Below are positions 6,693 through 64,000 of a DNA stretch of 64,000 nucleotides, piece after piece (positions within the stretch are counted from its first letter, which is position 1; the number at the start of each line of letters is the position of its first letter). Both the position numbers and the translations under genes were made by a program. Location: positions 960,001 through 1,024,000 of the forward strand of contig JAXHMG010000003.1 of assembly GCA_034521595.1 (NCBI GenBank), in the 5' to 3' direction. The DNA is from Gemmatimonadota bacterium. Its GTDB lineage: Bacteria > Gemmatimonadota > Gemmatimonadetes > Longimicrobiales > Gaopeijiaceae. The notes under the pieces are model-generated. The model was given only the letters and a program-made list of their open reading frames with translations, ran no database searches and was not told the origin of the DNA.

Positions 6693-7925
6693 TTAATTCT
6701 GGGCACCGACCTCCCATACCTCGACATACTCTTCGTCTAGGCGAGTGCGCCTGAGCAGAGCGATCCGATCCCGCCCCACAGCAAGTAGTTCTGTCCGCCC
6801 TGGCAGATAGCCGAACTGCTCGGTCGGCACCTTCAACTCCGCTTCTGGGATGCCGTCCGGAGAGAATATGACCCATCTTCGAAGTGCTTCTCCCGGGATA
6901 GTGGCCTCTCCGATCCATAGCGAGCCATCGGGATCAACCTGGAGGCCTTCGAAGCCCGGTAGGGTCTCGTGTATGGGCGCCTCGTTCCAAACCTTCCGGA
7001 TCCCCTCGTCGTCCAGAGGAACCATGGACGATCTCCTCTTCTCCCATGCCGATTCCTCACTTCTACCGACCTCTCCGTTTCGGCCCGGAGCTACGATGCG
7101 ACGCAGCGGGGCCATATCGGAGTCGTAGACCATGACATCCAAAGAGTCAGTGGAGCCTATAGCGACTCGCTCCCCTCCGGATGCGTGGAAGACCGTTCTT
7201 GCGAAACCGATCGGAACCAGGAAGGCGGTGCTCCTCTCCAGGCTACCGAAAGCGCGCTCCAGGCCTTTCCAGACACCGACCGTATCCGGTCCGTTGCCGT
7301 CGGCGTCCCACGTCAAAAGAGGTACCGTGTCCCTCCGTTCACCACTGCTCTGGAAATAGCGCTGCTCTCCGAGCACCGCGGCAACTCGACCGCTATCGGA
7401 AACCATGAGAGGTACGAGAGAAACCACTGGGTTCTCGTAGCCCAGCCGCACGACCTCCATGAACTCCGCGTCCGGGCTATACCTTGAAAAACGGTTATAA
7501 TCCCAAGCTGTGAAGCCGCCATCCGCGGCCGGGAGGAGCTTGGTCAACCGTTCGAACTCTCCGGGGCCCTGGCCCCGACGACCGATGCGGCGTGAGGAAG
7601 TCCCTTCGCTGCCCAAATGGATCAACTCTTGCGATCCGGTGTTGGCCAGCACCAGCGACCCGTCGGGTAGGAACAACCCGTCCAGCACCTCAAAGAGCTC
7701 AACCTCTCGCCCGTCAACATCCCGAGTACTGAACAGCCGTCTGGCTGAGAGCTCTGGCAGCGAAAACTCCTTCAGCGGTGGAATCTCCACCAGCTGCAGG
7801 CCCGCCGAATCGGAGACTGTGACCTCGGGACGGTCAAGGGTGGGAGCCCCATCACAGCCCATGGCGGTCAGCAGCATCAGCAGCGCGATCCATCCAGCGT
7901 CGGCATGTAGGTCCCGATCCGCCAT
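6693..7925 (-). CDS. 6-bladed beta-propeller lipoprotein (paralogue 5)
   Basis: Lipobox AMGC, DSAGLQLV, GRRGQGPGEF, RBS GAGG before ATG 7925. Confidence 0.8.
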   Translation of the reverse strand: MADRDLHADAGWIALLMLLTAMGCDGAPTLDRPEVTVSDSAGLQLVEIPPLKEFSLPELSARRLFSTRDVDGREVELFEVLDGLFLPDGSLVLANTGSQELIHLGSEGTSSRRIGRRGQGPGEFERLTKLLPAADGGFTAWDYNRFSRYSPDAEFMEVVRLGYENPVVSLVPLMVSDSGRVAAVLGEQRYFQSSGERRDTVPLLTWDADGNGPDTVGVWKGLERAFGSLERSTAFLVPIGFARTVFHASGGERVAIGSTDSLDVMVYDSDMAPLRRIVAPGRNGEVGRSEESAWEKRRSSMVPLDDEGIRKVWNEAPIHETLPGFEGLQVDPDGSLWIGEATIPGEALRRWVIFSPDGIPEAELKVPTEQFGYLPGRTELLAVGRDRIALLRRTRLDEEYVEVWEVGAQN

Positions 7926-7986
7926 GTTGCCTCGAGTTCGTTCAATTCGCCCGCTCGTCCCGATAGGGCCAGAAGCCTGCGATGTC

Positions 7987-8147
7987 AGTTGATGTTCAGA
8001 TGTTTCTGACGTGGCCACAGCATACACGCTCATGTTTCCTGGGCCTTCGGAATGCACCTGTCAGGATACGATTCCCGCACGCTCGATGCCATGTTGGTCG
8101 GAGCGAACGAGGTGAGCGGAGTGAGGACCTAAATGGGCTTGTCAGAT
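7987..8147 (-). repeat. Decayed attC-like site of the same ~160-bp family as 54370-54531 and 55674-55833
   Basis: Shares GTTCAGATGTTTC-GACGTGGCCAC and GCCATGT-GGTCGGAGCG with those sites and has the same length. Its minus-strand ATCTGAC end directly follows the stop codon at 8148. Confidence 0.65.
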
Positions 8148-8357
8148 TCATTCGGGGCAGTGGCCGAAAGAGCAGCAATAGAAACCCGTGCAGTCTTGGC
8201 TACCACAAAGCTCGCAGCAGCCAGTGCAACTGAAATTATAGCATTGGCAGACGCTTGCACTGGGACTGGCCACCAACGGAGATCCGGCGAGGAAATAGCC
8301 AGATGCGGCCATGAAGAGAAAAAGGCCGATCGCTCGAACGGAGGCGAACTGCTTCAT
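8148..8357 (-). CDS. Small secreted cysteine-rich peptide (69 aa, 10 Cys)
   Basis: RBS GAGGT 5 nt before ATG, then a Sec-type signal MKQFASVRAIGLFLFMAASGYFLAG, then VCQCYNFSCTGCCELCGSQDCTGFYCCSFGHCPE. Confidence 0.75.
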   Translation of the reverse strand: MKQFASVRAIGLFLFMAASGYFLAGSPLVASPSASVCQCYNFSCTGCCELCGSQDCTGFYCCSFGHCPE

Positions 8358-45765: not shown

Positions 45766-45839
45766 GGGCCCGTAGCTCAGTTGGTCAGAGCAGCCGACTC
45801 ATAATCGGTAGGTCGCAGGTTCAAGTCCTGCCGGGCCCA
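45766..45839 (+). tRNA. tRNA-Ile2 (anticodon CAT, lysidine type); CCA not encoded
   Basis: GGGCCCG acceptor stem, TAGCTCAGTTGG D arm, GCCGA-CTCATAA-TCGGT anticodon arm, GGTTCAAGTCC T arm. The anticodon arm resembles ileX-type rather than Met tRNAs. Confidence 0.9.
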
Positions 45840-45852
45840 CTGGCAGACCTCC

Positions 45853-46530
45853 TCAATCCCCCTCCGGGTCGGGCGGTAGGCGGACTCTTGAACCCCGGTG
45901 GCTACCTGCTCCATCGTATCGATGTCGGGCTGCTGGTAGATGTTTGCCAGCACGTGCGCGCCCTTTCCAGCCGCCGAGGTGAGCGACGTCGCGCAAGGGC
46001 AGGTCGTTGCGGGCGGCGGCGATGCTCCGGAGGCAGTGCCACCCCTGGCCCTTCCGTCGCGGCACGCCCGCCGCCTTCTCGGTCCGCTTCCACCACTTCG
46101 TCGCCAGGCAGACGTCGATCGAGCCCTCGCTCGCGGGGGCGGGGAACATCGGGGCGTCACCGATCCCCGGTCGCTGTCGCATCATGCGCTGAAGCTCCGC
46201 ACGCAACCGCGGCGTGACCGGCGCCACCCACTCCCGCCCGAGCTTGTCGCTCTCGGCCCTCCAGCGAAGAGCGCCGTAGCTTGCCATTGGGGAGCCAGCT
46301 CCGAATACCTGAGGGCGACGATGGCCCCGATGCGACGACCGGCTCCGCCGGCGATCACCAGTAGCGAACTATGAAGGGATGGACCTGGTCTCCCGCCTCG
46401 ACCATGGCCTCGAACTCGGCGTCATCGAGCCATTCCCTCTTAGGGTTCTTCTCGGACGGGACCTTGAGGCCGCGGGTCGGGTCCTGGCTGAGTATGAACG
46501 ACCCGTTCGGACGCCGGGATGCGGCAGCCC
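45853..46530 (-). pseudogene. Tyrosine recombinase/integrase, truncated and frameshifted
   Basis: Fragments PTRGLKVPSEKNPKREWL, GRRIGAIVALRY, GWHCLR, VAHLGGWK and IYQQPD, lying immediately 3' of the tRNA. Confidence 0.75.
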
Positions 46531-46749
46531 ATCGCAGACCTGCGCCACCGCCGGGATTGTCGGAGGGCTCCAGTCCATGAGGATGGCGTCGGCTGCGTTG
46601 AAGAAAATCGAAAAAGGGGCCGACGAACACCGTTGCGCCCCAAGATCCGTGCTCACCATTGACCGGGTCCTTCTCAACGATGTCATCCGCCGTGTGGCTC
46701 ACTGGCAGTCCCATCGACTCCCTGCAGTGGCGCAAAATCCCGCATTCAT

Positions 46750-47802
46750 TCAATCAGTGCCCACTTTCCTCCGGTCCCATTCAGGAGCCATCGTCAGTAG
46801 CGCATCTTCAGCCCCTCCGCAATCGTACACTGGATATCCGGACCTGAGACGGCGGAGATTTAGATACGCATGTAGCTCAAAGCCCCTTTCAGGGGCGCAC
46901 ATACTCAGCGCACGCCATCAGTTACGATGAGCCGATCGCAGTCTGGACGGTCCTCTGCGTATGCTTGTGCTGGAGAGAGCGGACAAACAGGAGTTGCCCA
47001 TCTTTTTTGCCTCGACGACGACGCGGAGGGAACCGTCGGAGCGAGGGAGCCTATCGAACAACGCGACATCGACCCGGTTCCACTCCACTGCCATCCGCTG
47101 GGGTGTCCACCCGAGCGCCCGGAGAAGTGGCGTCACCAGATAAGCAACGGTTTCATGCTCCACGGCCGGCTCAGCGTCGTAATCATTTCGCGATCCGCAT
47201 CAACTCACCTATCTGGCTCACGAGGAATTGATAGACGAATGGCTACACCTCGGTCAAGAGGAACTCGGAAATAGCATCAATGCCGGTCTCGATGCCCGTC
47301 ACCGTCGACAGGCAGGTCGACGAGTTCCCGTTCCCACGCGTGCTGCGGGACCTCGAGTTCCTCAAGCCACTTCTCTACCGCCGGGCTGTCCAGCTCTTGG
47401 GGTATCACCGAGCTTCATGGCGTAGGTTTCAAATTCCCTAGCGCCGTTCTCCGCTCACAACCAGCGCACTCGCCGAACGTGTTGTAGATCCCAACCATCA
47501 ACATCGCCGAATTCGTCGCTCCAGAGATATTCACCGACGACCTCACCCACCCCGAGGACACGAGCAGTTCCCGTGCGCAGAACCACAATTTCGCCACTCT
47601 TCATCTCGTCGCAGAAGCGTCGAAGGTCCGTGAGCTTCCGCGCTGAGCGGCCGGCCCGGCGGAGGTCATCTTCGCACCCTGGCCAAGGGCCGGCAGACCC
47701 GGGTCCATTGAGAATGACATCCCACCTTAGGCATAGGCGGGCATAGTTTCGGTCTGTATCACCTGCTGCTTGCTGCCAAACTGTCTTGCCCGTGATGTCC
47801 AT
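46750..47802 (-). CDS. PUA/EVE-like N-domain fused to HsdR_N-like PD-(D/E)XK nuclease (frameshifted)
   Basis: N-part MKSGEIVVLRTG...GVGEVVGEY...HVRRVRWL. C-part PLLRALGW...VDVAL...VVEAKK...IVTDG. Confidence 0.6.
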
Positions 47803-47833
47803 GTCTGCTCAGACGGATTGCGAGGTGAAGGGT

Positions 47834-47857
47834 GAAGAACGTTCAGGCTTGTTATGT
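47834..47857 (-). repeat. Collapsed attC remnant
   Basis: GAAC-GTTCAG left end joined directly to CTT-GTTATGTGA right end of the other sites. Confidence 0.45.
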
Positions 47858-47909
47858 GAGGTTCTGGGCCACCACTACCGCTGCTGGCTCTTCCCTCCAG
47901 GCGCAGCTC

Positions 47910-48750
47910 CTACACGGAGAAGAGGTCGATCCGAAAGTCCTCAACTCTTCGCTGCCCCGAAGGGTCGTCCCAACTGACAACTACCTCGAACTCAGTCGGC
48001 GAACCCATTGTGGGGGCCGCCAAGACGGAGACTGATTCACCCGGACGCAGCTTCGGAGCCGGGAACTTCCTTTCTCGTTCGTCCCCGACCAAGATCTTCT
48101 CATGACCACCGTTCAATGGAATGAGCTCCTGAAGATCAACATTCGTCGCTTCTGCGTTGCCAGTATTGATGAACTCAACTCGGCGGGTGCTTCCCGATCC
48201 GTGGCGTATCACCTGGACCGAAACGAACGCTTCGGCGTCGTCCGGTTGATGAGAAGCCGAATCCTCCATGGGCTCGACTGAAGGTGGATCCTCCTCAAGC
48301 ACTTCCGCAATGACGTCGTCCAACGCAAGAACGTGATGCGCCAGCTGAACAGCGGTCGTCTCAACTAGCATGTTTGCCACTGTGCTCAACAGCAAGGAGT
48401 TCGAGACGAAGCGCTCCATTGCTGGCGCAGCTCGGGGTTGTCGTCGTGAAATACCGAGCCGTAGAGCCAAGCTTCGAAGACGTCTGCGTGGGTCAGCCCA
48501 TCGAGCTCGACGTCTTTGCTCCTCAGCACGTCTAGATAACTGGCGCGTAAGCGTGAGAGGTGAGGGCGACGGTCCTCGCAGGACTTGGCTAAGATGTTGA
48601 GCGCGGTCAGAAAAAGCGCGCTCTTGTTGCATCTCCGCTAGCATACGTCCGACGGAGTGCGATCATGAAGGAAATGCAAGCGCTCGCTATCGTGACCCCT
48701 CCGGGAAACCGATAGCTGACTTCCGGAACGCGCGGATATGGAGACGCCGA
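47910..48750 (-). CDS. Hypothetical protein with C-terminal Ig-like beta domain (cassette gene; 5' end uncertain)
   Basis: ORF 47910..48644 with INTGNAEATNV...LRPGESV...VSWDD pattern. Confidence 0.45.
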
Positions 48751-48903
48751 CATCGCCTCCAGACCGAATGATGGTCGACTCCAGGATATCTCGGCCGCAG
48801 CGCGGCGGACCGCCCGGAGTCGCGCTAGTTCATCCGCTTCAAACAAGGGCTCCCACGCCTCCGACGTTCCCGTTCAGGATTCCCGCACGTTCAGAACCGA
48901 ACG

Positions 48904-49022
48904 TCACAACGTCTCGCGCTTCCGCCGCACGCCCAACATGGTCGACTCACAGCGCAAGCTGCAAGGCGAGCGCTGCGGACCCATCTACCCTGTCCGCGAC
49001 AGCAGCAAACGCATTATTCAGC
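48904..49022 (-). repeat. Probable attC site (119 bp)
   Basis: Minus strand GCTGAAT-AATGCGTTTGCTGC ... GCGGCGGAAGCGCGAGAC-GTTGTGA. Confidence 0.5.
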
Positions 49023-49304
49023 CGATACCGTCGAGACAGGGGATCGTACTGGCGATTGAGAAACGCCGAGACCGACTGCTCCCGTGGGGGCATTTGAGGT
49101 TGTACTGCACTTGCCTCACAGGCAGGTGCGGATCCGCGGCGCCTGAGGCGACTCACGGACTGGCGGGCCAGAAACTGAGCGAAAACCATGACCGGTCTAC
49201 GCGGGCCAAGTGAGTCCCGGTCAGCGGCTACGCCGGGCGCTCGAAATCCGGAACGGCTTCTTATAAGTTTGACTATGCACCGAAGAACTCGGAGAGGTCC
49301 CCGT

Positions 49305-49932
49305 TTACCGAGGCACATCTTCTCCGGCTCTCTCCTGTGCCTTGCTGAGGATAGAGCGTCTATGCGCTGCCCCGATCAAGAAGACGCCTACCGTGAAATG
49401 TCGATGCCGGGAATAGTCATCGATTCCCTGTAGCATCGCTTCTTCACGACGTTCATTCATGGTCGTCCAGGGACCGCAATCCATGACGCGACGATGGTCA
49501 ACGGCTTTGCGACCGGCGAGCCATTCGACCGTGTCCGGACTTTTGGACTCCGGACCAAGCCTGACTGGACCGTTCGCTATTCAGATAGGCGAATCCGGAT
49601 CTCTCGATCCACGACGCGTTCTCGTCGATCAAGCGGCAGTACTTGCGGCTGGTGCGTTCAATCTTCTGAACTAAGAAGCGTTTTGCTCGAAAGAACCCTT
49701 CGTCCGGCTGGGGCAGGTCTACCGGAACAATCGGCACCTTTTCGGTTTCTCGGTAGCGCCTTATGGCGATCGATCTGAGGTTGCTGCGGGTGCCGTCTAG
49801 GAAGTCGCCGAGAGCTGCTGGCGGGAGTTCAAGGAAATTATCTGGTCGGATCCGTTCGAGAATCGCAACGAGGCGGGGAACGGCGACGAGCCCTTCCTCA
49901 TGAGAGTCCCGACGAACTAGCACACGGGTCAT
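49305..49932 (-). CDS. TraB/GumN/ChaN-superfamily-like protein (frameshifted cassette gene)
   Basis: HEEG, ERIRPDNFLE, RREEAM and FLIGAAH motifs spread over two frames. Confidence 0.5.
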
Positions 49933-49970
49933 TCCGCATCCCTCACTGACCTAGGCGGCATGTCTGAGGT

Positions 49971-50023
49971 TACGTAGGTCGAACCGGACGAAGTGAGCCG
50001 AGCGGGAAACATGCTCGTTAGGC
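49971..50023 (-). repeat. Half attC site (R'' side)
   Basis: Minus strand GCCTAAC-GAGCATGTTTCC..., similar to the matching half of 54370-54531. Confidence 0.6.
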
Positions 50024-50057
50024 GGCGTTGGGCCGTGTTCGGCCAGAGCGATCGCGA

Positions 50058-51025
50058 TCAGGTCACCAGTTCCAAGAGGTCGGTTTCAGTAATCTCTCTC
50101 ACCTCCAATCGACCGCGCTGCGATGCCGTGGTGGAATGCGGGAAGATGTCGATGACCAGGATGAAGAGAGACTTGTTGTTGTGCGAAAGCACGGGAAGAC
50201 CCGAAACCGTATCGCTCACGGCAAGCCCGAGATCTGCCTCGGACGTCTTGAAGACCACCAGATATCCGACGGGTTCAGTTGTAGTCCTGGGAGTAGATGT
50301 AGAGCTGATTGACCCCTCTTGCGAGGTAGGGGACGTCCTTGCCTGAGTCCGGATCGAAGATCTTGGCGTCCGCAATCAGTCGTTCCTCTCCGGTCTGCGC
50401 TTCGACCAGATCCGCCTCGCCGGACGCAGAAGCCGGTTCGATCGCAAAGTCGAGCCCCTGATCGAAGAGATATTGGTACATATCTAAGGCCAGCACCTTC
50501 TCGCCCCGCTTCTCCGCTGACTGCCACGTCTCAAAAAGTCTCGACCTGGAGAACCACTCGCAGCGGTGCTTGTAGCGAAGAAGGAGGCCGAGCACCGCCC
50601 GCCCGGTGTCCAGCTTCTCGTCGATGTACTCGTAGAGTGGCTCGGTCGAGAGCTCGTGTGAATTGCTCACCCCAACCCGACACGTGTGTCCCGTCTACCC
50701 GACCGAGCCGGTAGGAGACTGAGTACACTGGAGACCTCCCTCGTCGGACAGACTGGTGTTCGATGAGAGCGAGGGCGAGCGAAGCATGCTCTTCCTCCGT
50801 GGTCGGCTCGAAGAACCCCCCGGCCGTCAAGGAGCGGCTCAATCCGCTGGTTGGCATCTGGCACTTCTAGACGAAGGTCATCCAAAACACCCCAGAGTAA
50901 TGAGTGGCTCGAACGCCAATACTGCCTGAGCCCTAAGACGTAGTGGCCTCGGAGCGGGTCGAGTTAAGCCGACGCACTCGCTTCTGCAAACCGTATCGAA
51001 GTGCCTGCAAGACGTCGCTATTCAT
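50058..51025 (-). CDS. PD-(D/E)XK nuclease-like protein (frameshifted)
   Basis: GEKVL...SGEADLV...IADAKIF...QLYIY in ORF 50275..50670. Flanking frames continue the protein. Confidence 0.55.
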
Positions 51026-51254
51026 ATCCAGAACTCGATCTCGCCGAACGAGCGAAGGTGGTACTGAGTTCATCGACCGCACGACTACTTGCGCTCAGCT
51101 TTGCGGGCGCTGTTCATGTGATCGTCGAGTTGAAGGTTCCGCTTACATTCGGCGGCAGATGACTAGGTTCGAGTCCGGATTTCACGATCATCGCCGGGTT
51201 AAGGAAACCACACTTCGGGCATGGAACATCGATCTCCGCGTGATCGATGCCAAA

Positions 51255-51720
51255 CACGGCATCAGGCATTTCCCTCCTTCTCTTCGAACCCGGCGGCGTA
51301 GAGCGCGACGAGGCCACTCGTGAGATCTAGGATATGCACGACGCGCCCATCCGCGAGGTGGATGCCGATCTGCACTTCGCCTATGCCAAAAGCACCCTTG
51401 CCGTAATGCCCTCGGCCCACAGCCTTGCTGGGCCGACGTGGAGACCGCACCAGGCGTCCCACGCCGAACAGGATCGAGCTCGAAGTGCTTCGATGCGTTC
51501 GCTAGGTCCGGCATGCCCGAGAATCTGATGCTACCAACTCACGAAGGCGATCCGGAGGGAAGTCACAGGTATCATCCCGTTCGATCCACTCCCGCAGGCG
51601 GTATCCGTAACCACGAAGTTGAAGGCCCCATCAGACGTCACCTCGTCGTCCAGAGCAGCCAGATCCCGCTTCAATTTCTTGAAGAGGTCCTCCGCCCCGC
51701 TAGGCCGTAGCGTAACGTTC
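51255..51720 (-). CDS. Hypothetical protein (frameshifted), possibly HEPN-related
   Basis: Hand translation AEDLFKKLKRD...AFNFVVT...EWI...DLANASKHFEL...GRGHYGKGAFGIGE. Confidence 0.4.
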
Positions 51721-51787
51721 CTTCTCCCCTTGTTATCTAGGACGCCCGCTCACCAGTCTGGACCCTCCTACCTGAAGGCTCAATGCC

Positions 51788-51881
51788 GCCTAACGTTCAA
51801 AGTTGCGGTCGTGGCTCGCGAACACGAGGCATGATCGTCGTAGTGAGCGTACCGAACGAAGCCGGCAACTGATTGTTATGT
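51788..51881 (-). repeat. attC site (94 bp)
   Basis: Minus strand ACATAAC-AATC-AGTTGCCGG ... GACCGCAACT-TTGAAC-GTTAGGC, with a near-consensus inverse core, a canonical GTTRRRY core and paired L boxes. Confidence 0.8.
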
Positions 51882-51979
51882 GTCGTATGTCGACGTCGAT
51901 CACCCCATCTGTGACAACCCTGCGCAACTGTTGCACCCGTCGGTTCGTGCCGGGCCTGGGCGCGCGCCGCCCTCGTACT

Positions 51980-53134
51980 GCGATGAGAGCGCGAGGATTC
52001 GTTCGGAAGAACCCCTCCGCCGCGGATACAGTGATGTCGGTGCGGGTCGGTGATCAACTCCCTATCGCCTTCCCCTCGAACTGGGAAACACGATGACCGC
52101 GGCCGGCCCAATGCTTCAAGAGGATCGTTGAGTTCAGGAGGTCGGTCTGAAACATCGAAACTAGCGCTGTATCTACAATGCGTTGGGTCCACGCCCACGA
52201 AGTAGAACATGAATACTGACTTTTCGTGCGAAAGAAACTCCAGGGCCTTGTCTAAGTTGTAAGCCTTAGGGTTGCAGTCAGGACCACGATCTTGGTCTTC
52301 ACGTCCGTCTCCAGTCAGGAAACCGTCGAACGCCCTCCGATAGTCCCCAGCGTGTTCTCAGTCTTGAATGCAGGGATGCCCTGGCTCGCCCCATGGGACT
52401 GAAGTGCCTGTATGATCTCCTGTCGCAACGTGTCGTCTTCCCCAGCGATCAGGTATTCATTACCTTGCCGCGCACGTTTACTTTTCTCATTAAGGCTGTA
52501 AGCACGATTTCGTTGCGGAACCGATCAACTCTTTATCAAGGCTCTGCTTCAGAGTCACGGCGTGTTGCGATTTCACAAACCGGACCGCCCTGTTCAGGAG
52601 CCGCCACGATCGAACGCCTGGCGAGGTCATTTACGACATATTTGTGACCAGTCGGCGAAATGTTGTTCGTCGCCTCGACAAGCCGAACGAGGTTGTCATC
52701 GAATCCCACAGATGCATGGATATTGAAGAGGCGCTCAATGTTGGCCGGGACATTTTGGATGCCCTGGAATTCCGTCAGGATATCCGAGCCGTTGAAGCTG
52801 CCCTTGATATTATCTACCGGTAGTCACGCGAACTATGACTGATTTTTCGGAGAAGAAGTGGTGTTCGCAAGAAGGACGAAATTCTCAGAAGGTGTCACGA
52901 GACAGACCAGAAACGGGAAGACGTTGACCTCTCGAGATTGGAGAGGGACAGGACCGTATTTGAGAAGCGCTTCTCTGCGGCGGAACTGAACCTTATGGCG
53001 AAATCCTCGCAGTAGAACACTGAGCGGTCTTTCGTTAGGCCAAACTGGGCCGTGACTATACTCGCCAGTCGCGCCTTGTCGTTGATCCCATGGTGGCCAG
53101 CGATCACTTCTAAGAGCTGATTGAGCTTGCTCAT
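51980..53134 (-). CDS. Putative type II restriction endonuclease (frameshifted; 3' end approximate)
   Basis: MSKLNQLLEV...FAIRFSS...FSNTVLSLS...NIKGSFNGSDI.... Its ATG adjoins the 3' end of the MTase gene. Confidence 0.5.
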
Positions 53135-54115
53135 TTGACGAGCTTGAGGTCGCCTTCGGAATCGACCGTGCCGCCACCTCCATCCCTCGCTCTTGGCCCT
53201 TGCGGCTGTTCCGCTCCCAGAAGACTCCATCCGCATAGCCTTGGATAGACGGGTTGAGCGAAGCCGTGTCCAAGCGTTTGAGAGCCCAGCAGCAATATTC
53301 CGCCACCTGCTCAACGCCTAGGAACTTGCGGCCCAGTTTCTTGGACACTACCGCCATCGTGCCGCTCCCCAAGACCGGGGATCCAAATACAAAACCACTT
53401 CGATCCGTGCTGGCGAGGATCAGCTTGGCGAGGAGCTTCTCCGGCTTCCTAGTCGGATGGTCCGGTCCGGCATCGACCAAAAAGGAACCGTAATGTCGCT
53501 CCAGATATTCGATGGGTGCGTAAGACGGAAATTCCCGTCTTCACTTTCGTCCCAGTCTTTGGGATGTCCGGCCTCATCCCGGTACGGAGCGATCACCCGG
53601 CGCTTCACCTTTATGGTATTAATGTTGAAGTAGTAGGCATTGGACGCGGTGCAGAACCAGATATCCTCTAGTGTCCTCTTCCAGTTGGACTTCGCTCCCC
53701 GGCCTCTTCTCTCGCTCCCACGTGATCCGATTCACGACCAACTTGTCCTCCAGAATCGGCGCTATGAGCATTGATGTCCTCCAGTCGGAGCACACCAACC
53801 GTGCCCTGCGGTTTCAGCGCGGGAATCAGAACGTCGAGAACGGACCCAAACCACGACCGATATTCGTCCTTTTGTTTCTGCTTGAACAAACGCCCGTTGG
53901 GTTCTTTGTGATGTTGTAGGGAGGATCAACTACGATCAAATCGGCGAAATTGGTGGAAACGGTGCGACCTCAAAGAGGTCCTGGTTTACAACTTCCCCTT
54001 CCAAAGCATCCGCGGAAGTAGGCTCACTTAGGCGCTTGAGCCTCTTGGATAGACTCCTGATCTCGTCCTCGTCACATGACAACGTTCGATTTCGAGGGGC
54101 TCGGCTTTTGAGCAG
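53131..54115 (-). CDS. Beta-class N4/N6 DNA methyltransferase (frameshifted)
   Basis: DLIVVDPPYN precedes HPTxKPEKL and LGSGT (motif IV before motif I). Confidence 0.85.
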
Positions 54116-54369
54116 TTCCTTCGGAATACAATGCCGGATGTGGAAAGTTTCGAGTTCCTGAGCCATCTGCTGGGCCTGTACAGCAGCGCCAGCGGGTTCT
54201 TGGATCGGAGCGTGTGGACCCTCAGCGCCAGCTGCCAAGTTCAGTGCGGCTCGGCCCCGGACTGAACGGCGTCTCTGGGCTCTAACGTGGCGATGTCAAC
54301 CGTGGCACCGTAGTGGCTCTGGTGCCGAACATGAGCTTCTGAGGGTCGCGCCCCCGAGGACGCATGTCG

Positions 54370-54531
54370 CCATGACGTTCAGATGTTTCCGACGTGGCCA
54401 CCGCCGAGCTGCTTACATGCGAACAGAAGCGGAAGCCAAGTTCACTGCACCCAGTCTACGGACCCAAGGCGCTCGAGGCCATGTAGGTGGAGCGGGCGAA
54501 GCCCGCGGAACCGGAAACATTCTTGTCATCA
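54370..54531 (-). repeat. attC site (162 bp) with GAC/GTC variant ends
   Basis: Minus strand TGATGAC-AAGA-ATGTTTCCG ... CGGAAACAT-CTGAAC-GTCATGG. Confidence 0.7.
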
Positions 54532-54579
54532 CACGTCGCACACACCCCTGATGTCCGACACCCACCTGCGACTGCTATC

Positions 54580-55658
54580 GCCCCTCTCGAAGGGATTGAG
54601 CATGGAGGTGAAGGTACCTCTTCGAGAGGCTCTGGACTGGTCCGACTGGTAGATCTCCTCGGGAGCATCTTGGCCATGAAAAACGTCGTCCCGGTTCTTC
54701 TTGGCCTCAGCAAACGTCTCTAGGTCTGCGTCCGCCTGCTCTGGTGCCAGGCTGGAGGCGATCGGCGAACTTCTCCGTGAGCCGATACTTGTCCTTCATG
54801 ACATCCTGAACTCGACTGATGTAATGGCCGTGCGCCTCAGCAGGGACCTCACGTCGAAGCGCCTCGAAGAACCGCTTCTCGTCGTATCCAAACACCTTGT
54901 TGGTGAACATTTCCAAGGCTGCCCATCCCGCTCTGAAATGACCGGAGTCGGTCGGATGAGTTCTCCAGCGACGCTAGGAAGAGATTGAAGACTGGATCGA
55001 GCTTCCGGAGTACGTCAAGATCCATGAAGGTCTTCAGGACATCGTCCTTCAGTGTCGTAGGAAATGACTTCCAGTCCGGTAGCGGTCGCTGAGCCCCCCA
55101 TCTGTTTGGCGAAAACCTTCTTCCATCGCCGCGATCGTACCATAGAGCTGTTGTGTACGGCTTCAGGGTAGCCGAGTGCTCGGACTCCACCGATACCGCG
55201 AGCATAATAGCTGCCGTGGATCGTTTGGTATCACCACCTATATCGGCCCCAGAGGCTCCGTTCAGCCGGACAACAACCTCCCCGATCTGACGCTCTCGCT
55301 CCGAATCGGGAAAGTCGGCCACCTCCCCGATTCGCCGTACGACTAGGTAGGCCCTGGCCCGGCCAAGGTCTTGGCGATGAGATCGAGCGATCTCGACCTC
55401 CTGCTCAAGGCGCTCTTCCGGCGTCCCTTCCGGTCCGCCTCCACTCAGCGCGCGGAGCAGCATGTTGCCTACTGCCACGCTCAAGTCAGCATCGGCGCAA
55501 TGGGGATCAGGGTCCGGAGTGATGCATGCCCACAGACCGTCCTGATCCACGAGGACCACTTCCCCTTCAGCCGGTGCCGCGAGTCCGGATAGCTCCTGAA
55601 CGACGGTATGGACGAACTTGAAGACGGTATCCGGGATCACGTATACGGGAAGGCACAC
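54580..55658 (-). CDS. HEPN-domain protein, ApeA-like layout (frameshifted; 3' end approximate)
   Basis: C-terminal LEMFTNKVF...AKKNRDDVFHG with an RxxxxH motif at ~54676-54693. Confidence 0.6.
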
Positions 55659-55673
55659 CGCTCACGCGATGTC

Positions 55674-55833
55674 AGATAACGTTCTTGTGTTACCGACGTG
55701 GCCCACCACCGGAGCGCTCAGAGTTGACCGCCCGAGAGTAGGCGCCACTCCGCTTCCGCGCCACGAAAGCCTCGGGCCATGTAGGTCGGAGCGGACGCGA
55801 AGCGGCCGCGGAGCCGGCAACACTTTGTTATGT
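55674..55833 (-). repeat. attC site (160 bp)
   Basis: Minus strand ACATAAC-AAA-GTGTTGCCG ... CGGTAACAC-AAGAAC-GTTATCT. Confidence 0.8.
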
Positions 55834-56197
55834 GAAGTCGCGATCACGAATGGTCAGGCAACCGACACGTAGGCTACGACCAGTACCGTTCCCAATCCCG
55901 CCGCAGGGTTTCCAACAGACGTCGGGCTGCCTCTACCTCACCAGCACTTAGTTCCCACCGGGCGTTCAGCACGCGATTGCTAAAGCCGGACGGGAACGCA
56001 TTTCGGTCGAAGTTTCGTACCCCTCGCAGGAGTCGATCCAAGGCCTCCAGAGCACGCTGGAACTCCGACCGGTTGTCCCTCGTCGGCTCGGTGTCCCGCA
56101 GTATTTGGATCGCCCCGTCGAGGTAGCCTACGAGGACCGCCGATGGCGGTGGCGCCCCTGGCGGGGCGTTTGGTCGCTACAGCTTCCGCGTGCGTTT

Positions 56198-56416
56198 CTA
56201 GCTCCTCGGCCAGTTGGTGCAGGTCCGCGATCCGGCTTCGAACCAGTCGGGCAAGACCAGTTTCCCACCCCTCGGGGAGGAGGCGCGATAGTTGGCGGCC
56301 GAACTGCTCATCCGTGCCTGCCGCACCGACTGCACGGACGTCATCCCGAGTGCCTCAGCGAGGTCTTGATGCTTCGGACATTCCGTGAGCCGGTCCGTCG
56401 CCTCGATGAAGTCCAT
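56198..56416 (-). CDS. Small HTH DNA-binding protein
   Basis: MDFIEATDRL...HQDLAEALGMTSVQSVRQAR, RBS GGGAGG. Confidence 0.55.
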   Translation of the reverse strand: MDFIEATDRLTECPKHQDLAEALGMTSVQSVRQARMSSSAANYRASSPRGGKLVLPDWFEAGSRTCTNWPRS

Positions 56417-56437
56417 CCTTCGAAACCTCCCATGTGG

Positions 56438-56476
56438 GTCTATGGTAGCATAGACTGCCACGAGGGTCTATGTCAA
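56438..56476 (-). promoter_or_regulatory. Sigma70 promoter overlapped by three CATAGAC operator half-sites
   Basis: Minus strand TTGACA-N18-TATGCT. GTCTATG at 56438, CATAGAC at 56449, GTCTATG at 56466. Confidence 0.65.
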
Positions 56477-56727
56477 GATAGAACGGCCACCGCATAGCGC
56501 CCAGGCGTCTCTCACCGATAAGGCACAGGCGATTTCGTGCGTGCCTCCGCGCTCTGGCATTCAGCGAAGCCCGCTACGAGGCTTCCTCATCCTCTGGCGG
56601 CGGCATCTCTACATGGAACTCCTCCTGTGCCTCTTCAGTGCGGGTCGGCAAATAAGTTCCCGAAGGCCTCGCATACTCGCTCGCACTGCTCGCCTTTGAA
56701 CATCGAGCGGCAGTTCGAGAGAGGCCT

Positions 56728-57514
56728 TCACGGTGCCATCGAGACCGCCAATGCCTGCTTCACTTCTTCTGAGGACGGCTCGGCATCTCCATGTACTGAT
56801 CTATTCCGGAGCCGGTAGACATCCGGCAGGGCAGCTATGAGTGCTTGGTCAGGCTCAGGTGCGTTGGACAACGCCTTCATGGAAAAATCGAGAGTCGACC
56901 CAGTAAACCGTTGACCTTCATCCAAGAACGCGGCCATCAAGGCTCGAATGCCGCGCTCGAAACGAGCGAACCCGTCAACGAAATCCAGCACAGCGCTTCG
57001 TTCGGGGCTGACCGCGCCGCTGGGCTCGTCCGACTGAGCGGGTGCGGGCGGCGTAACGAATCGCACCTTTGTCCAAACTTCCCGACTAACCGTGTCGGTG
57101 ATCCAGCCATTTAGGTCGGTGTCGAACTCCGTCTCGAGAATCTGACCGAGTGCGTCGAACGCGGTTTCCATGTGATAGTCCAGACTGACGTCATCCACAT
57201 TCCCGTAGCGGTGTTGGATGGCGTTCCGCTCATCGACCAGCAGTTCGACCCGCGCGTGAAAATCCAGCTCGGTCGAGGCTCCATAGCTTGGCCAGGCTCG
57301 TGAGGGCTTCGTGGGTGTTAATAGTGCGGCTGCCGTTCTTCTCGTAGATCGGGACGTTGCGTTCTATCAGAGCGGCCTTGATCGCCAACTCCACTGCCTG
57401 AGCAAGATGCAGAACGGCCACCTTACGGTGGCGCGGCGTGTCACTGGCGTAGTTCTCAAGCCCATGCTGCAGGATTTCCAGGGCGAAGCGGAGGATCGGT
57501 GAAGTCTGTGCCAC
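56728..57514 (-). CDS. Protein with two HEPN motifs (frameshift near 57270)
   Basis: AVELAIKA...ERNAIQH in the N-half and FERGIR...LRNRSVH in the C-half. Confidence 0.65.
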
Positions 57515-57559
57515 TTCCGCGCCTTCCTTTGCCTAAGGTGTGGCTACCAGATCGGCCAA

Positions 57560-57600
57560 GCGATTTCACATAACTATCGGTAAGCGACACGGTAAGGCAA
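57560..57600 (-). other. attI-like site at the head of the cassette array
   Basis: Minus strand CTTACCG-N5-CTTACCG-ATA-GTTATGTG. There is a GTT core with no upstream attC hairpin. Confidence 0.5.
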
Positions 57601-57739: not shown

Positions 57740-58466
57740 TCCAGAAGTCCCAGTCTTCATGTGCGAGCGGAGCTCGGTTCGCTCGTCCCGATGAAAGCGC
57801 CAGTTGGGCAGAACCGAGTTCCATCAACGCTTTGAACCGCTCGGTACGGTGTCGTTCGAGACAGTGTCATCGTGGACGAGGATGTATTCGAGGCATTTCG
57901 GAGGTTTCTCAGCCAGCTCCGTGTTGAGCCAGATGCGGCCCACTTCCGCGTTGCAGGTTCCACCGGGTCTTCATCCGCCGGACCCGTAGGTCGCTCGCCT
58001 TGACACGGACCCTCGCCTCCCATGTTTCCAGCAGATCTGCAGCGGCATCGCGAACCTGTGAACGGTACCAACACTCGAGGACGGCATCCCTCTTCTCCCG
58101 ATCCGAGCCCCTGCGGACCAGCAGCTCCATCCGGGTCTTCCCGACGAGGCGCACCGAGGGTGGGCCATCATGCTCCACGACGTCCAGTCGATACCGCCGG
58201 CCCCGGAAGTAGTGGCTTTCTCCCGTCACGAGCTCGCGCCTCGATTGCCTCTCCTGGCCCTCGAAACTCCTTGCGACGACGCCGGATCCAAGCCAGGCGC
58301 GTCACAGATCGCCAGACGGACGGCATCATCGTCCAGGTGGAAGGAGCGGCGACACCTCACGCGGCCAGCCGGCGGGTAGACACCCCACATGGAGGTTCTT
58401 GATCTGCTTGCGCACGACGTCAACAGCGATGCCGCCGACCTCGATCTCGTGACGTTCAGTACTCAC
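57740..58466 (-). CDS. M48/DUF45 (YgjP-like) metallopeptidase/hydrolase associated with type I RM (frameshifted)
   Basis: VRKQIKNLH, GESHYFRGRRYRL, RRMKTRW, RAPLAHEDW. Confidence 0.75.
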
Positions 58467-61400
58467 GTTGGGCCTTCACGATCTCGAACAGGGCCTCTGC
58501 CAGGATGTCGTCTCCTCCGACCTCGGCCTTGATCGCATTGCGAACTTCGCGCTCCTTGAACCGGTTTCCGCGCCAGTCTGCCTTCTTGACCTGGCGGATG
58601 GCCCGATCGATGGCGATGGCCGTCTCGCTGCGGCACGCCTCGGGGCGACGGCTCTCGCAGGCCGTATCGGGCGCCGAGCTCCATCGAGATTGTCGTAGAG
58701 GGCGCGGAGTGGAGGTGTCTCGATTTCGGCTGGGTAGGTGGAGCCGGTGTGTGGTTGACTCACCTTCCACGTCAGGTCCACAATCCCAGCCAGGTACGCC
58801 TTGTAGTCCAGCGCTTCTTGGCGGCGTTGTGTGATGAGTGCGTCCAGCAGCATCCGACATGTGCTCGTAGTACTTCGGGTTGACGGCCATCTCGTCGATG
58901 ATCAGGCGGCGGACGTTGTTCTCGATCGTCTCTGCCATCGCCTCCCGGTCGCTCGGCGCAGCGTCTGCGGCAGGGCATCCAGACCGCCTGCTTCGCCACG
59001 CTCGACGATCAGTTCGACAAGTGTCAGGTCGTCGAAGGCTGAGAGCTTTTCGCTGTCCTCTGCGCGGATGTAAGTGTCGAGCAGGTGACGCATGGCCGGC
59101 TCGTACATCTTCATGTCGATGTAGTCGCCGCTGGCGAGCTTCACCTCCTCGCGGACCTTTTCGTAGTGGGTGACCTCCCCCCTGACCGCCTCCGCCTCTG
59201 CATCGGAATAGCCCGCCTGGCCCATCTCGTTCGCGAGATTCGCATAGGCCCGCACGTACGCGCCCAACCAGCTTATAGAGTGCGATGCGCTTGGGCTCGT
59301 TGTTCTTCAGTTGTTCGCCGTTTCCGCTCTCGGCGGCGCAGAAGTAGCGCAAGTGGGCCGACGTGTCTCGCGGCGGCTCCACGGGCTCGCACAGCGCCTT
59401 CACCGCCTCGCGCGCCTCCTCCAGCCGCTCGTGGCCCTGCTTCGAGCCGATCCTTTGAGCAGTCCCGCCACATCCTCTTGGTCGTACCCGCCGAAGGCCT
59501 CGCCGGTGTAGTCCTTGATGGACTGCTCGAGCGACCGGAACAGGTCCTTGTAGTCGACGATATAGCCGTACTCCTTGTCCTCGCCGTCGAGCCGGTTGAC
59601 GCGGCAGATGGCCTGGAACAGGCCGTGGTCCTGCATCTGCTTGTCGATGTAGAGGTAGGTGGCCGGCAGCGCGTCGAACCCGGTGAGGAGTTTGTCGACC
59701 ACGATCAGGAGCTTCATCTGGCCGGGCTGCTCGACGAAGCGCTTCTTCACCTCCTCCTCGAACTGCTCGACCTTGTACATGGCCTTGCTTTCCGGCTCAT
59801 CGAAGTGGGCCGCGAGCATCTTCCGGTAGATGTCGTACTGGTGAAGCTTTTCAGTCAACCCCTCTCCGGTATCTCTCGCCCTTGATGTCGGCCGGCGACG
59901 GCTGGTACAGAGGTGACGATCGCGCACTTGCCCGGCGAGATCCGGTCTGCTGGAACATCTCGAAGAAGCGGCAGGCCGAGTAAATGCTGCCCGACACGAG
60001 AATCGCGTTGCCGTGACCGCTCTTGAGCCGGTCGCGCGTCGCCATGTCCATCATGATGTCCGCGACGATGGTTTCCAGCCGATCACGCGCCGATAGCACC
60101 TTTTTCATGGTGCCCCAGCGTTGCTTGAGCTGGGCCTTGGCGATGTCCGTGAGTCCCTTGGTCTTCAGCTCGAACCACCGATCGACCTTCTCCTGCGAGG
60201 TGATGCGCTGGTCGATGTCGCGAGCTTCGTACGCGAAGATCCAGCACCACACCGTCGTGCACCGCCTCGTCGTACTTGTAGGTGTGGATGTAGGGGCCGA
60301 ACGTCTCGATGCTGCGCCGTTTGTCACTCTTGAGCAGCGGCGTGCCGGTGAAGCCCATCAGCGTCGCATCGGGCAGTAAAGCCTTCATTGCCTCATGCAG
60401 CTTACCGGACTGAGTCCGGTGGCACTCATCGACGAAGACGAAGAGCTCGCCCTTGGGCGCGGAAGTCCCTGGGGACGTGCTTCTTGATGTCGTCGAGGAA
60501 GGCGGCAACGTCACCTTCCTCTGAGGCGCCGAACTTGTGGATCAGCGAGCAAATCAGCCATTCCTCGCTGGCGTTCAGCACCTGTGCGAGGTCGGCGCCG
60601 CTCGTCGTGCGGTAGATCTCCTCGCTGACGCCCTTGAAGACCTTCTCGATCTGGTCGTCCAGCTCGGTGCGGTCGGTGATGATCAGCACCCGGCTGTCCG
60701 GCACGTGCTCTCGGATCCACTTTGCGCAGCCACACCATGATCAGGCTCTTGCCGCTCCCCTGGGTGTGCCAGAGGATGCCGCCCTCCCGCTGAAGCGCAT
60801 GCGTCTGAGCGGCCCGCACCCCGAAGTACTGGTTGTGACGGCAGGTCTTCTTGATGCCGGCATCGAAGACCATGAAGTCGTGGATGATCTCGAGCAGCCG
60901 CTCCTTGCGGCAGAGCTGGCCCAACTCCCGAAGTAGCGGATTGTCCCCGGCCTCCGGATCGACCTCGGCTTCCTTCCAGCGGAGCCAGTACTTCTCCGGT
61001 GTCTCGATGACGCCGTAGCGCAGCCCCTCGGTGTCGTTCCCCGCCATCACCAGCTGCACCGTCGCGTAGAAGGGCCGGATGAAGGTCTTCTTCTGGCTGT
61101 CGAGGTTCTGGCGGATCCCTTCGCTCACGGACACGGTCGACCGCTTCAGCTCCAGCACGCCGAGCGCGACGCCGTTCACATAGAGCACGACGTCAGGGCG
61201 TTTGGTATGCTCGCCGGCGACGGTCACTTCCTCGGCGACAGCGAAGTCGTTGTTGTCGGGGTCCTCCCAGTCGATCAGCCACACCGTCTCGGTCTGCTCG
61301 CCGACATCAGGCCGAACCTTCACGCCGTAGCGCAGGAGGCCGTAGACCTCGCGGTTGGCGTCGTAAGCGTCTTGCTGCCCGACAGTCCGGCGGCCTTGGC

Positions 61401-61599
61401 CAGTGCGAACAGCACTTTGCCGATGATCTTGTCGCCGTGGCCTTGCCCGTCTGAGCCAGTCCGTCAGAAGGGCCTTCTCGACGTTTCCACTGCCCTCGCG
61501 GTCCTTCCAATACCCGAGGTGATCGTAGCCGAGGGCATCCCGGAAGAAGTCGATCACTCGCTTCTGGGTGAGGGCTTCGCGTTGACCGACGTTGCTCAT
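58456..61599 (-). CDS. hsdR: Type I restriction endonuclease subunit R (multiple frameshifts)
   Basis: RPDVVLYVNG..LELK, WHTQGSGKS, VDECHR, GFTGTP, LLTGFD, QAICRVNR. Confidence 0.9.
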
Positions 61600-62470
61600 A
61601 CCCCCGCCTCCGCGCGCGCATTCTGGAGCTGCTTCAGGGTGACGCCGTGTGCATCCTTCCACGCGTTCCTGCCGTTTGCGGCGCCGCCAACGAGGACTCC
61701 GGCCGCCAGTGGACGGTGACGCGAAGCCGGAAGTCCTGGGTGAACACGAGATGGACACCCTCTTCCACGAGCACCGCGCGGTCCCGCGAGTTGTCGGCGG
61801 AGGTCGCGAATGATAGTCATGGACCGATTTTCGTCTCGGAGGCACGGCCCTTCGACCCCTGAAGCACAACGAAGCCATCCGCCAACTTCGCGCCCTCTCG
61901 CCTCACTTCCCCTTTCCGAGAGATATAGCACCCCGTCGGCTACCGAGGCAGGCTCGTCGGTGGCCGCTGCCTCGAAGGCATCCACGCCTAGCAGAGGGTA
62001 GATGACGAGCATCTCCGCCAGGAACCACTCGGCGTCGGCCCGGTCAGCCTCGGACAGGGGTGGCTCTCCGGCACGCTGCCGTTGTCGAGCTCCCACTGGT
62101 TTGCGGATCATCGCCAGGGCGAGCAGCCTTGCTTCCAGGAAACGTACGACGGCCTTGTTGAGGCTCTCGTCGGTGCTGGTGAAGGCGACGAAACGGGTTC
62201 CAGAAGTCCTTGCGGCTCGCGTGTTGTTTGCATCCGTTCGCGCAGCACATCGGCCTCACCGACGTAGAGGCGGTCGCTACCGCCGTCGCCCGGCCCAAGG
62301 AGCAGGTATACGCCTGGCCTGCCCATCTCCTCCCGCTCTAACGCGCGACCCAGCTGTGAACGACTCGCCACCACGGCTCGCCCGACCCAGTTGGACTTGT
62401 CGACAAGGCGGATCCCGTCCGGAGAGCCGTCTGCGAGGAAGATCCGAATGGAGGTGGGACGAAGGTCGCG
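61596..62470 (-). CDS. GIY-YIG nuclease / DUF4357 protein (frameshifted)
   Basis: IRIFLADG, PGVYLLLG...LYVGEAD, AANGRNAWK. Located between hsdS and hsdR. Confidence 0.75.
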
Positions 62471-62474
62471 ACCC

Positions 62475-62966
62475 GTCTCCCGTTTCGGAGTCTGCGGGTT
62501 CGACCAACCGGATGCGGCCCGTGAGTAGCTGCTGCATCATGCCCTGCTTGATGGCGCGGATCTTGTCACGGCGGCGCTCCAGCGCGGCAATTTCCGCGTC
62601 CATGTCGGAGAGGACGGTGGCGATGGCAACCTGTTCCTCCTCCGTCGGCGGCAGGGCTACTCGGAAAGCCTGGAACGTGGGGAGACGAAGCGAATCGACC
62701 GTTGCCTTGACCGTGTTCTGCATCGCCCAAGCGCCGAATCTGATCGCCATGAAGGAATGGACGAACCTGGTCGACACCCCCGGCGACATTTGGGTGATTG
62801 CATAGACCCTCTGATGTACATCGAACCGACCACTGACGTAATGGAAGATCTCTCCGATGCAGGCCTTCCCCGGGGACGAGTATGGCTTCATCGGTGAGGG
62901 AGTAGCTGTCAATTCGTTCCACTACGTCGGAGCGTACGAAGAAGGCGTATTCGCCGTCCGGAACCT
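62475..62966 (-). pseudogene. hsdS: Type I RM specificity subunit, 3' part, interrupted by IS3
   Basis: LPPTEEEQVAIATVLSDMDAEI...KQGMMQQLLTGRIRL. The frame runs up to the IS end at 62967. Confidence 0.85.

Positions 62967-64000
<1,034 letters not shown>

Follow-up and report, generated by a model that had tools for sequence, protein, structure and literature searches.

A stretch of 64,000 nucleotides from the genome of a Gemmatimonadota bacterium (GenBank assembly GCA_034521595.1; contig JAXHMG010000003.1, here called C3; positions C3:960001-1024000, hereafter the window) holds at 47.8-57.6 kb what we regard, with a probability of about 0.85, as a satellite array of integron cassettes, i.e., at least four minus-strand cassettes, each ending in an attC-type site from a ~160-nt family peculiar to the genus, and no adjoining recombinase. 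This is the pattern of a cluster of attC sites that has no integron-integrase (CALIN), defined by at least two attC sites with no integrase nearby: sites A, B and C are present, and six-frame searches through stop codons with TIGR02249 and PF00589 gave no match anywhere in the window, in agreement with an earlier note on this DNA that had seen no integrase next to the array. As a CALIN the array is real, though in decay, and of an ordinary kind. What makes it unusual is the non-canonical integron system to which it belongs, with a main array near the start of C3 and, at its head, a tyrosine recombinase ~925 kb from the window array; a few cassettes of candidate nuclease type add to its interest.

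The genome comprises 3.49 Mb in three contigs, has a guanine-plus-cytosine (GC) content of 67% and is estimated to be 93% complete. The earlier note had listed six attC-shaped sites, of which A, B and C are genuine and D and F are remnants, while the sixth, E, is discussed below among the points that weigh against our reading. It had also placed the array at 46750-57600, but the array runs further: a full attC of 149 bits lies at C3:1025082-1025243 (window-equivalent 65082-65243), ~1.1 kb past the window end and upstream of an insertion sequence (IS) of the IS3 family and of type I restriction-modification (RM) genes. The RM operon is thus flanked by attC-type sites. Coordinates of all features are given in Table 1.

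Table 1. Features of the array and of its surroundings, in window coordinates (MTase, methyltransferase; REase, restriction endonuclease; ORF, open reading frame)
Feature	Position	Strand	Description
Upstream neighbours	57912-64000	-	in order: YgjP-like gene, hsdR (five frame pieces), PDC-S14 candidate gene, hsdS, IS3-family element
IS3-family element	62967 to past window end (64000)	+	ALIL frameshift pseudoknot at 63299-63417 (Rfam)
PDC-S14 candidate defence gene	61599-62536	-	E 1e-28 (PADLOC); inside the type I RM operon, with hsdS on one side and hsdR on the other
Upstream boundary	57567-57574	-	lone GTTATGTG R'-type core; cassette 1 starts after the G of GTT
Cassette 1, 1,893 bp	55681-57573	-	double-HEPN gene at ~56728-57514 (one frame break) and second gene of ~190 aa at ~55874-56420; ends in A
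attC A, full length	55672-55835	-	R1 122.6 bits (training site); R'' ACATAAC, R' GTTATCT
Cassette 2, 1,305 bp	54376-55680	-	ORFan gene at 54849-55658 as assembled; ends in B
attC B, full length	54368-54533	-	R1 137.8 bits (training site); both core triplets altered, R'' ...GAC / R' GTC...
Cassette 3, 2,582 bp	51794-54375	-	type II RM pair: MTase ~52836-53731, REase ~51800-53317, both frame-broken; ends in C
attC C, short form, 98 nt	51786-51883	-	R1 37.4 bits, E 1.3e-10; outside training set
Cassette 4, 1,770 bp	50024-51793	-	gene of ~325 aa at ~50058-51040, several frame pieces; small upstream ORFs at 51117-51749; closed by stump D
attC remnant D	49907-50023	-	R'' GCCTAAC (50017-50023), L'' and side-hairpin region retained; L' and R' gone
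Cassette remains without intact sites	47860-49950	-	ORFs at 49498-49932, 48947-49318 and 47910-48644
attC F, collapsed, last site of array	47832-47859	-	ACATAAC + 10 nt + GTTCTTC; R1 13.6 bits, E 0.006
Flank, last site to tRNA-Met	45841-47831		PDC-S02-like fragment at 47458-47808 (E 7e-6); D...EAK motif fragment at 46921-47199
tRNA-Met	45766-45840	+	borders island
Lone degenerate attC, same family	7985-8149	-	R1 69.4 bits, E 7e-21

The attC-type sites form one structured family

Sites were scored with a covariance model, R1, built from 18 sites of the genome's own repeat family (alignment A1) and run with filters off over the whole window. Sites A and B are imperfect palindromes of ~160 nt that start with ...ATAAC-AAGAA-TGTTTCCGG (GAC in B) and end with CGGAAACA-TCTGAAC-GTTAT (GTC in B), and the short site C combines an R'' of ACATAAC with a canonical R' of GTTAGGC and one additional C in L''. 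By blastn, the 5' half of the remnant D matches four other sites at 87% identity along 39 nt, and site F, rightly described in the earlier note as collapsed (47834-47857), aligns to R1 only with its R boxes and spacer (R''-spacer-R'). Outside the family, the best R1 match in the window has an E of 0.11, and Rfam at gathering thresholds identified only the tRNA and the IS3 ALIL pseudoknot in the window, with no match to an attC family.

The window sites are 76-81% identical to their nearest relatives in the main array, A being 80-81% identical to those at C3:28873 and C3:25145. When the six claimed sites were compared with the genome by short-word blastn, A, B and D had many relatives, mostly at C3:0.6-32.7 kb and on one strand.

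A common fold is supported by covariation. From the 18 sites of A1, RNAalifold derives an L box of 8 bp and a distal stem ACATGGCC/GGCCACGT, and it places a small side hairpin on the R''/L'' arm; with the R box included, 96.5% of cells are paired (98.9% in the L box) and compensatory changes occur in 8 of 30 pairs. None of 500 shuffles of A1 reached these paired-cell and compensatory values, and slid controls pair at 30-40%. The side hairpin (A1 columns 22-53) is conserved, and the private stems measure ~15-20 bp. The triplets ...AAC and GTT... are present in all sites of A1 except B (17/18), where columns 7/169 hold a single G-C among 16 A-T pairs. The full RYYYAAC/GTTRRRY consensus is found in R' of C and R'' of D, most other sites having ATAAC/GTTAT.

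One position recurrently breaks the match between the two ends of a cassette. In 13 of 18 cognate pairs an A stands at position 11 after GTT in the cassette start where the inverse of R'' has G, and three further pairs have a shifted variant; the result is G-T on the bottom strand as opposed to A-C on the top one (e.g., 55836-55841 vs 57560-57566). This difference is possibly a strand marker; minimum-free-energy folds of A, B and C gave no consistent strand preference.

Members of the family cluster in co-oriented arrays

R1 matches the genome 30 times, and the matches are clustered, not dispersed. Sixteen lie at C3:1.5-32.7 kb, in the main array, and two at the start of contig C1 on the other strand, which fits a main array running off C3 into C1. 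The remainder, in six small groups, comprises A, B and C of the window, the lone site at 7985-8149, the full site past the window end, groups near 0.33, 1.45 and 1.50-1.52 Mb, and a partial match at 1.96 Mb. All matches on C3 (28/28) are on the minus strand.

It is very improbable that these repeats are repetitive extragenic palindromes (REP) or palindromes of the miniature inverted-repeat transposable element (MITE) type, unrelated to integrons. They do resemble such elements, being long, imperfectly palindromic and recurrent in the genome, with a few solitary copies (window 7985-8149, C3:332425 and C3:1449689), but 18 of the 30 matches belong to a single co-oriented array with a recombinase gene at its start, the same layout is seen in three other genomes, and the flanks are cassette-specific, pairing across the gene and not within the repeat, with the crossover at GTT. 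Since REP and MITE elements carry their own ends, without private pairing across a gene, this explanation is set aside; a MITE or REP family found independently of gene ends, which the earlier note had named as part of the refuting case, is not what the clustered, co-oriented matches look like.

By cumulative GC skew, the terminus falls at about 1.16 Mb and the origin at about 2.9 Mb, so that the C3 sites are spread over both replichores. The bottom strands of the main and window arrays would then be on the lagging-strand template.

Cassette ends carry the footprint of recombination at GTT

In the main array, the letters that follow the crossover point of one site, between the G and the TT of its core (G/TT), read as the inverse complement of those that precede AAC at the start of the next site, i.e., the two ends of each cassette pair with each other. 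With the shared 5-nt core left aside, 18 cognate pairs have a mean of 10.6 matches in the next 15 positions, vs 6.0 in 321 non-cognate pairs, of which 3.1% reach at least 10/15; one pair of sites, whose core was not locatable, was left out of this count. The first main-array cassette starts with GTTATGGGACATGTGTTG, the inverse of its own R'' region (13/15 beyond the core). That each cassette start inverts the attC end of the same cassette shows the cassettes to be products of recombination at G/TT.

Among the four window cassettes, the footprint is clear in two, that from 57574 to A (9/15, clear over the first 15 nt) and that from C to D (12/15). It is weak from A to B and fails from B to C. 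The two inverse matches that the earlier note had cited for its claim of pairwise matching ends are exact, 57560-57574 vs 55827-55841 with 14/15 and 51779-51794 vs 50017-50032 with 14/16, both including the core.

The upstream boundary at 57567-57574 reads GTTATGTGAAATCGC on the minus strand. It had been taken for an attI-like end, a view that does not survive comparison: it is a bare core without an attC body, no likeness to the main-array attI region was seen, and upstream of 57574 there is no R1 match at E<=10 in the window.

The main array is headed by a recombinase without the IntI insertion

The genome-wide search for intI proposed in the earlier note finds nothing above the TIGR02249 cut-off in six frames of the whole genome (93% complete), yet the genome is not integrase-less. 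PF00589 has four matches, two Xer-like, one partial and one adjacent to the main array at C3:34262-35455, the latter being a tyrosine recombinase of 399 aa located at the main-array attI. It scores 213 bits with TIGR02249 (cut-off 265), 210 bits with archaeal XerA (cut-off 220) and ~190 bits with XerC and XerD. Among solved structures, its best relative is 2a3v, a Vibrio integron integrase (VchIntIA), to which it aligns in two pieces that skip IntI residues 173-239, 25 query residues standing vs 67; the IntI-specific insertion near patch III occupies this skipped stretch and is retained in canonical IntI of the same order. No enzyme with this insertion was found in the genome.

The recombinase is co-oriented with the cassettes and has ~120 additional N-terminal residues. 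Pfam gave no HARP match to it at E<=0.01, and a profile of eight such N-terminal domains has the SMARCAL1 HARP structure 4o66 as its top PDB match, weakly (E 0.017). An attI junction, found for the main array and not in the window, lies at ~C3:34028, 230 bp after the stop codon of the recombinase and on the same strand, and matches the R'' region of the first cassette. The main integron of this genome appears to be run by an unusual recombinase that lacks the IntI insertion.

Orthologues of this enzyme are present in five of six congeners (59-75% identity) and in other genera (44-55%). In the congener G003, 14 sites lie directly downstream of the recombinase on the same strand, and in G038 and G028, of another family, sites are likewise downstream on the same strand; probing of the recombinase locus gave one site, at a contig end, in G002 and none in G022. 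Canonical IntI was counted in 28 of 151 genomes of the order (a tally that includes G025 and G116), so that both kinds of enzyme exist in the order.

A second array of at least 35 sites spans ~34 kb in G003 (C1:983747-1018088), on another contig than the only orthologue found in that genome.

The window cassettes were most likely made by the array-side recombinase, which heads the main array and could still act on them in trans; no other full-length tyrosine recombinase of the genome is non-Xer.

A decaying array in a variable island next to tRNA-Met

Both arms and the GTT/AAC triplets survive in A and C only; the core of B is doubly changed, D and F are stumps, and no site lies upstream of cassette 1. 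Because B is altered on both arms and D and F are truncated, at most a recombination of A with C, releasing cassettes 2 and 3 together, would still look possible. Expression of the cassettes would rely on promoters that they carry themselves.

The array lies in a 21-kb variable island of low GC next to tRNA-Met. GC is 53-64% at 45.8-63 kb of the window vs 67-73% in the preceding 30 kb, and the low-GC stretch begins directly after tRNA-Met and ends near 66 kb (window terms); taken as island vs surroundings, the values are 53-61% and ~67-70%. Synteny with G003 breaks exactly at the end of tRNA-Met and restarts at ~66.8 kb, the gap between the syntenic flanks being 21 kb here vs 10 kb in G003, where no site of the attC repeat family was found at this locus. 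Beyond the upstream end of the array and inside the same island, profile searches bear out the type I RM operon that the earlier note had read there. Among the parts of the island, only the attC sites and the IS have paralogues elsewhere in the genome.

That the whole island, cassettes included, is a horizontally transferred defence island at tRNA-Met, unrelated to the genome's own recombinase, is improbable. Its low GC (53-64%), its absence from the same locus in G003 and a cargo that was not found in 40 relatives all suit such a transfer; however, its attC sites share a family with the genome's own main array and with that of G003, which would require as donor a close relative equipped with this system, and the island has neither an integrase gene nor the tRNA-end repeat that marks integrative elements (a copy of the 3' end of tRNA-Met was sought within 55 kb downstream, and none was found).

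Two routes would bring a satellite array to this place: it may have entered an RM island that was already there, at a secondary GTT site, or it may have been displaced from the main array. Displacement, by a rearrangement between IS3 copies or by other recombination, would make the window array a piece of the main integron that was not built in place by cassettes inserting off target, and we consider it the unlikelier course, though one of some weight. An IS3-family element adjoins the island and has copies, 81-90% identical, inside the main array (C3:7167-8189 and C1:5888-6423), another full attC lies just beyond it (window-equivalent 65082-65243), and rearrangement is among the routes to CALINs named in the accessible part of one review (PMC8618304). 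Against this, IS3 copies only 81-90% alike and attC sites only 76-81% alike would make any displacement old, and the upstream end at 57574, a bare GTT core without an attC body, fits insertion at a secondary site better.

The cargo includes candidate defence genes

Cassette 1 carries a gene that Pfam assigns to HEPN below its cut-off (E 0.0024, 18.4 bits vs 22) and PADLOC to PDC-S19 (2e-5). Where two HEPN proteins had been read, there is instead one of ~312 aa with two Rx4H motifs, a putative RNase. Both of these RNxxxH motifs are invariant in 22 aligned relatives, out of 47 that were found, mostly of 280-320 aa and some labelled HEPN/DUF86 by the Joint Genome Institute (JGI). A metagenome scan with the HEPN fragment found nothing, and a scan with the family alignment gave 18 loci. 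The second gene of this cassette was called from its translation only; between the two genes, a 28-nt tandem direct repeat, 75% identical, at 56427-56482 may be an operator or promoter region. The protein of cassette 2 found only its own window copy among 5.8 billion clustered proteins, and PADLOC matches its gene marginally to HEC-01B (E 0.004).

Cassette 3 is by its profile matches a type II RM pair, solid at family level, and the MTase-REase pair of the earlier note is thereby upheld: the MTase matches N6_N4_Mtase in Pfam (1.8e-12) and MTase_II in PADLOC (1.9e-19), and the REase matches REase_II PDLC03461 in five pieces (1e-22 to 1.8e-8) that cover profile positions 1-358 of 384.

The protein of cassette 4 belongs to a family with at least 139 relatives of ~320-330 aa in many phyla, without a Pfam domain except in one fusion of 577 aa. 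E198, D207, D221, K223 and Q242 are invariant in 35 relatives. The AlphaFold2 (AF2) model of a 65%-identical relative (predicted local distance difference test score, pLDDT, 87) has a helical N-domain and a separate C-domain, which VIA-align compares with BamHI (Z 6.8), McrC (6.6), BstYI (6.4) and BglII (6.1), the tool's safe level being Z 8; Foldseek returned nothing for this model at E<=0.001. A PD-(D/E)XK-like fold of the modelled C-domain is suggestive, and the invariant D...DxK adds some weight. Of the two PD-(D/E)XK nucleases in the earlier note, this one has fold support (Z 6-7), while the other, at 46921-47199, is a motif read by eye, without tool support. The cargo is patchily distributed: a search of 40 relatives recovered neither the HEPN gene nor the cassette-4 gene, and relatives at 65-85% identity exist elsewhere.

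The ORFs of 47860-49950 had no match in Pfam, NCBIfam or PADLOC, and PADLOC gave only weak candidate-family matches to the rest of the cargo. An RM pair, a double-HEPN protein and a nuclease fold are common sorts of cassette cargo, and a role of this cargo in defence would follow from the families to which its genes are assigned.

Every 100-150 codons the frame of the island genes breaks, in contrast to the long open frames elsewhere in the window. A single public sequencing run overlaps the stretch, with 0.26 of the sampled words present, as contigs of ~1-4-fold depth, parts without cover carrying no evidence; its short contigs match the island without substitutions but with indels of a single or a few bases (one in 55084-55609, one in 50248-50622, seven in 46616-46965). 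Because the differences are indels and not substitutions, many of the frame breaks are likely assembly errors, individual frames not being settled at this depth; for example, one short-read contig adds a base behind 55122, with which the frame of cassette 2 would end at ~215 aa.

Observations that weigh against a cassette array

Several observations count against the window array being a set of integron cassettes. Some concern the sites. R1 is a family-specific model that was trained on A and B, both core triplets of B are altered (GAC/GTC, not AAC/GTT), and D, with 8.8 bits and an E of 0.22 over 49907-50008 (minus strand), is not significant on its own. The remaining claimed site, E (48904-49022), was dropped as an attC, R1 (E<=10) and blastn having both come back empty. 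In the consensus L box no classical extrahelical base is evident, an extra L'' base being present in C only.

Others concern the cassettes and their enzyme. The ends from A to B match at 7/15 beyond the core, inside the non-cognate range, and those from B to C (cassette 3) at 1/15. Nearly every gene of the array is frame-broken in the assembly, so that function cannot be assumed, and there is no sign of present-day activity of the array. None of the 18 metagenome loci from the HEPN family-alignment scan has an R1 site (best E 0.12), hence no sign that the HEPN gene travels as a cassette elsewhere. Finally, a small recombinase tree places the array-side enzyme outside IntI, between canonical IntI and Xer, with weak resolution; this tree is distorted by two extraneous rows, and no ancestry was drawn from it.

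Comparison with known integrons

Sedentary chromosomal integrons, such as that of the Vibrio cholerae repeats, have a large array, uniform long attC sites, attI followed by the cassettes, and ends chimeric at G/TT. The system described here resembles them in its large array, similar long attC sites, attI-first order, G/TT-chimeric ends and satellite arrays. Unlike in Vibrio cholerae, the recombinase lacks the IntI insertion (25 vs 67 residues), is extended at its N-terminus by ~120 residues and points the same way as the cassettes, and the attC sites have a conserved side hairpin on the R''/L'' arm and private stems of ~15-20 bp.

The window array is like the CALINs described in the accessible part of the 2016 survey (PMC4889954) in having at least three attC-type sites on one strand, 1.3-2.6 kb apart, with no integrase or integrase pseudogene near and a cargo mostly of unknown kind. 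In contrast with these, its sites belong to a long (~160 nt) lineage-specific family and the array is decaying, with two stumps and one changed core; furthermore, the CALIN class is defined by the IntegronFinder model, whereas the window sites were recognised by their own model R1. The compact candidate defence genes (RM, HEPN and a nuclease fold) recall the anti-phage cassettes of 'Mobile Integrons Encode Phage Defense Systems' (bioRxiv 10.1101/2024.07.02.601719, as far as its accessible part goes), from which they differ in being known from sequence alone, in having the RM pair as their only named defence family and in coming from an uncultured host.

The odds seem about even that the window array is one satellite of an undescribed kind of integron, conserved in at least two families of Gemmatimonadales. 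Its integrase would be Xer-like, would never have gained, or would have lost, the IntI insertion, and would bear a small N-terminal domain, weakly HARP-like (fork-binding), while its attC sites would have a side hairpin and a long private stem in place of extrahelical bases. A literature search on integron integrases without the additional domain, and on integrons in Gemmatimonadota/Gemmatimonadetes, found no description of this system; one review, in its accessible part, merely names the phylum among those with integrons, and the 2016 survey (PMC4889954), in the part accessible, judged recombinases without the IntI region near attC sites not to be integron integrases.

Integron surveys take the IntI-specific insertion as the mark of an integrase, and file arrays without such an enzyme as CALINs. 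Here, in four genomes examined, arrays with 14-16 or more sites, textbook footprints and an exact attI junction adjoin an enzyme without the insertion. If this enzyme is an integrase, part of the CALINs of environmental phyla may belong to unrecognised classes of integrons. The window array adds that sites of such a system spread to other loci, decay there and carry nuclease-type genes. If it is indeed a satellite of an undescribed integron, its cassettes would still serve in trans as substrates, and a store of candidate defence genes would lie in the ORFan, the double-HEPN protein and the helical-plus-nuclease protein.

Other copies of the IS3-family element and of the attC family

The IS3-family element breaks into the hsdS region, and a further copy of it lies at C3:1978709-1979458. 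The lone attC at 7985-8149 overlaps the start of an ORF of 454 aa (6693-8057) without a Pfam family, and lies in a second lower-GC patch of the window, at 6-13 kb.

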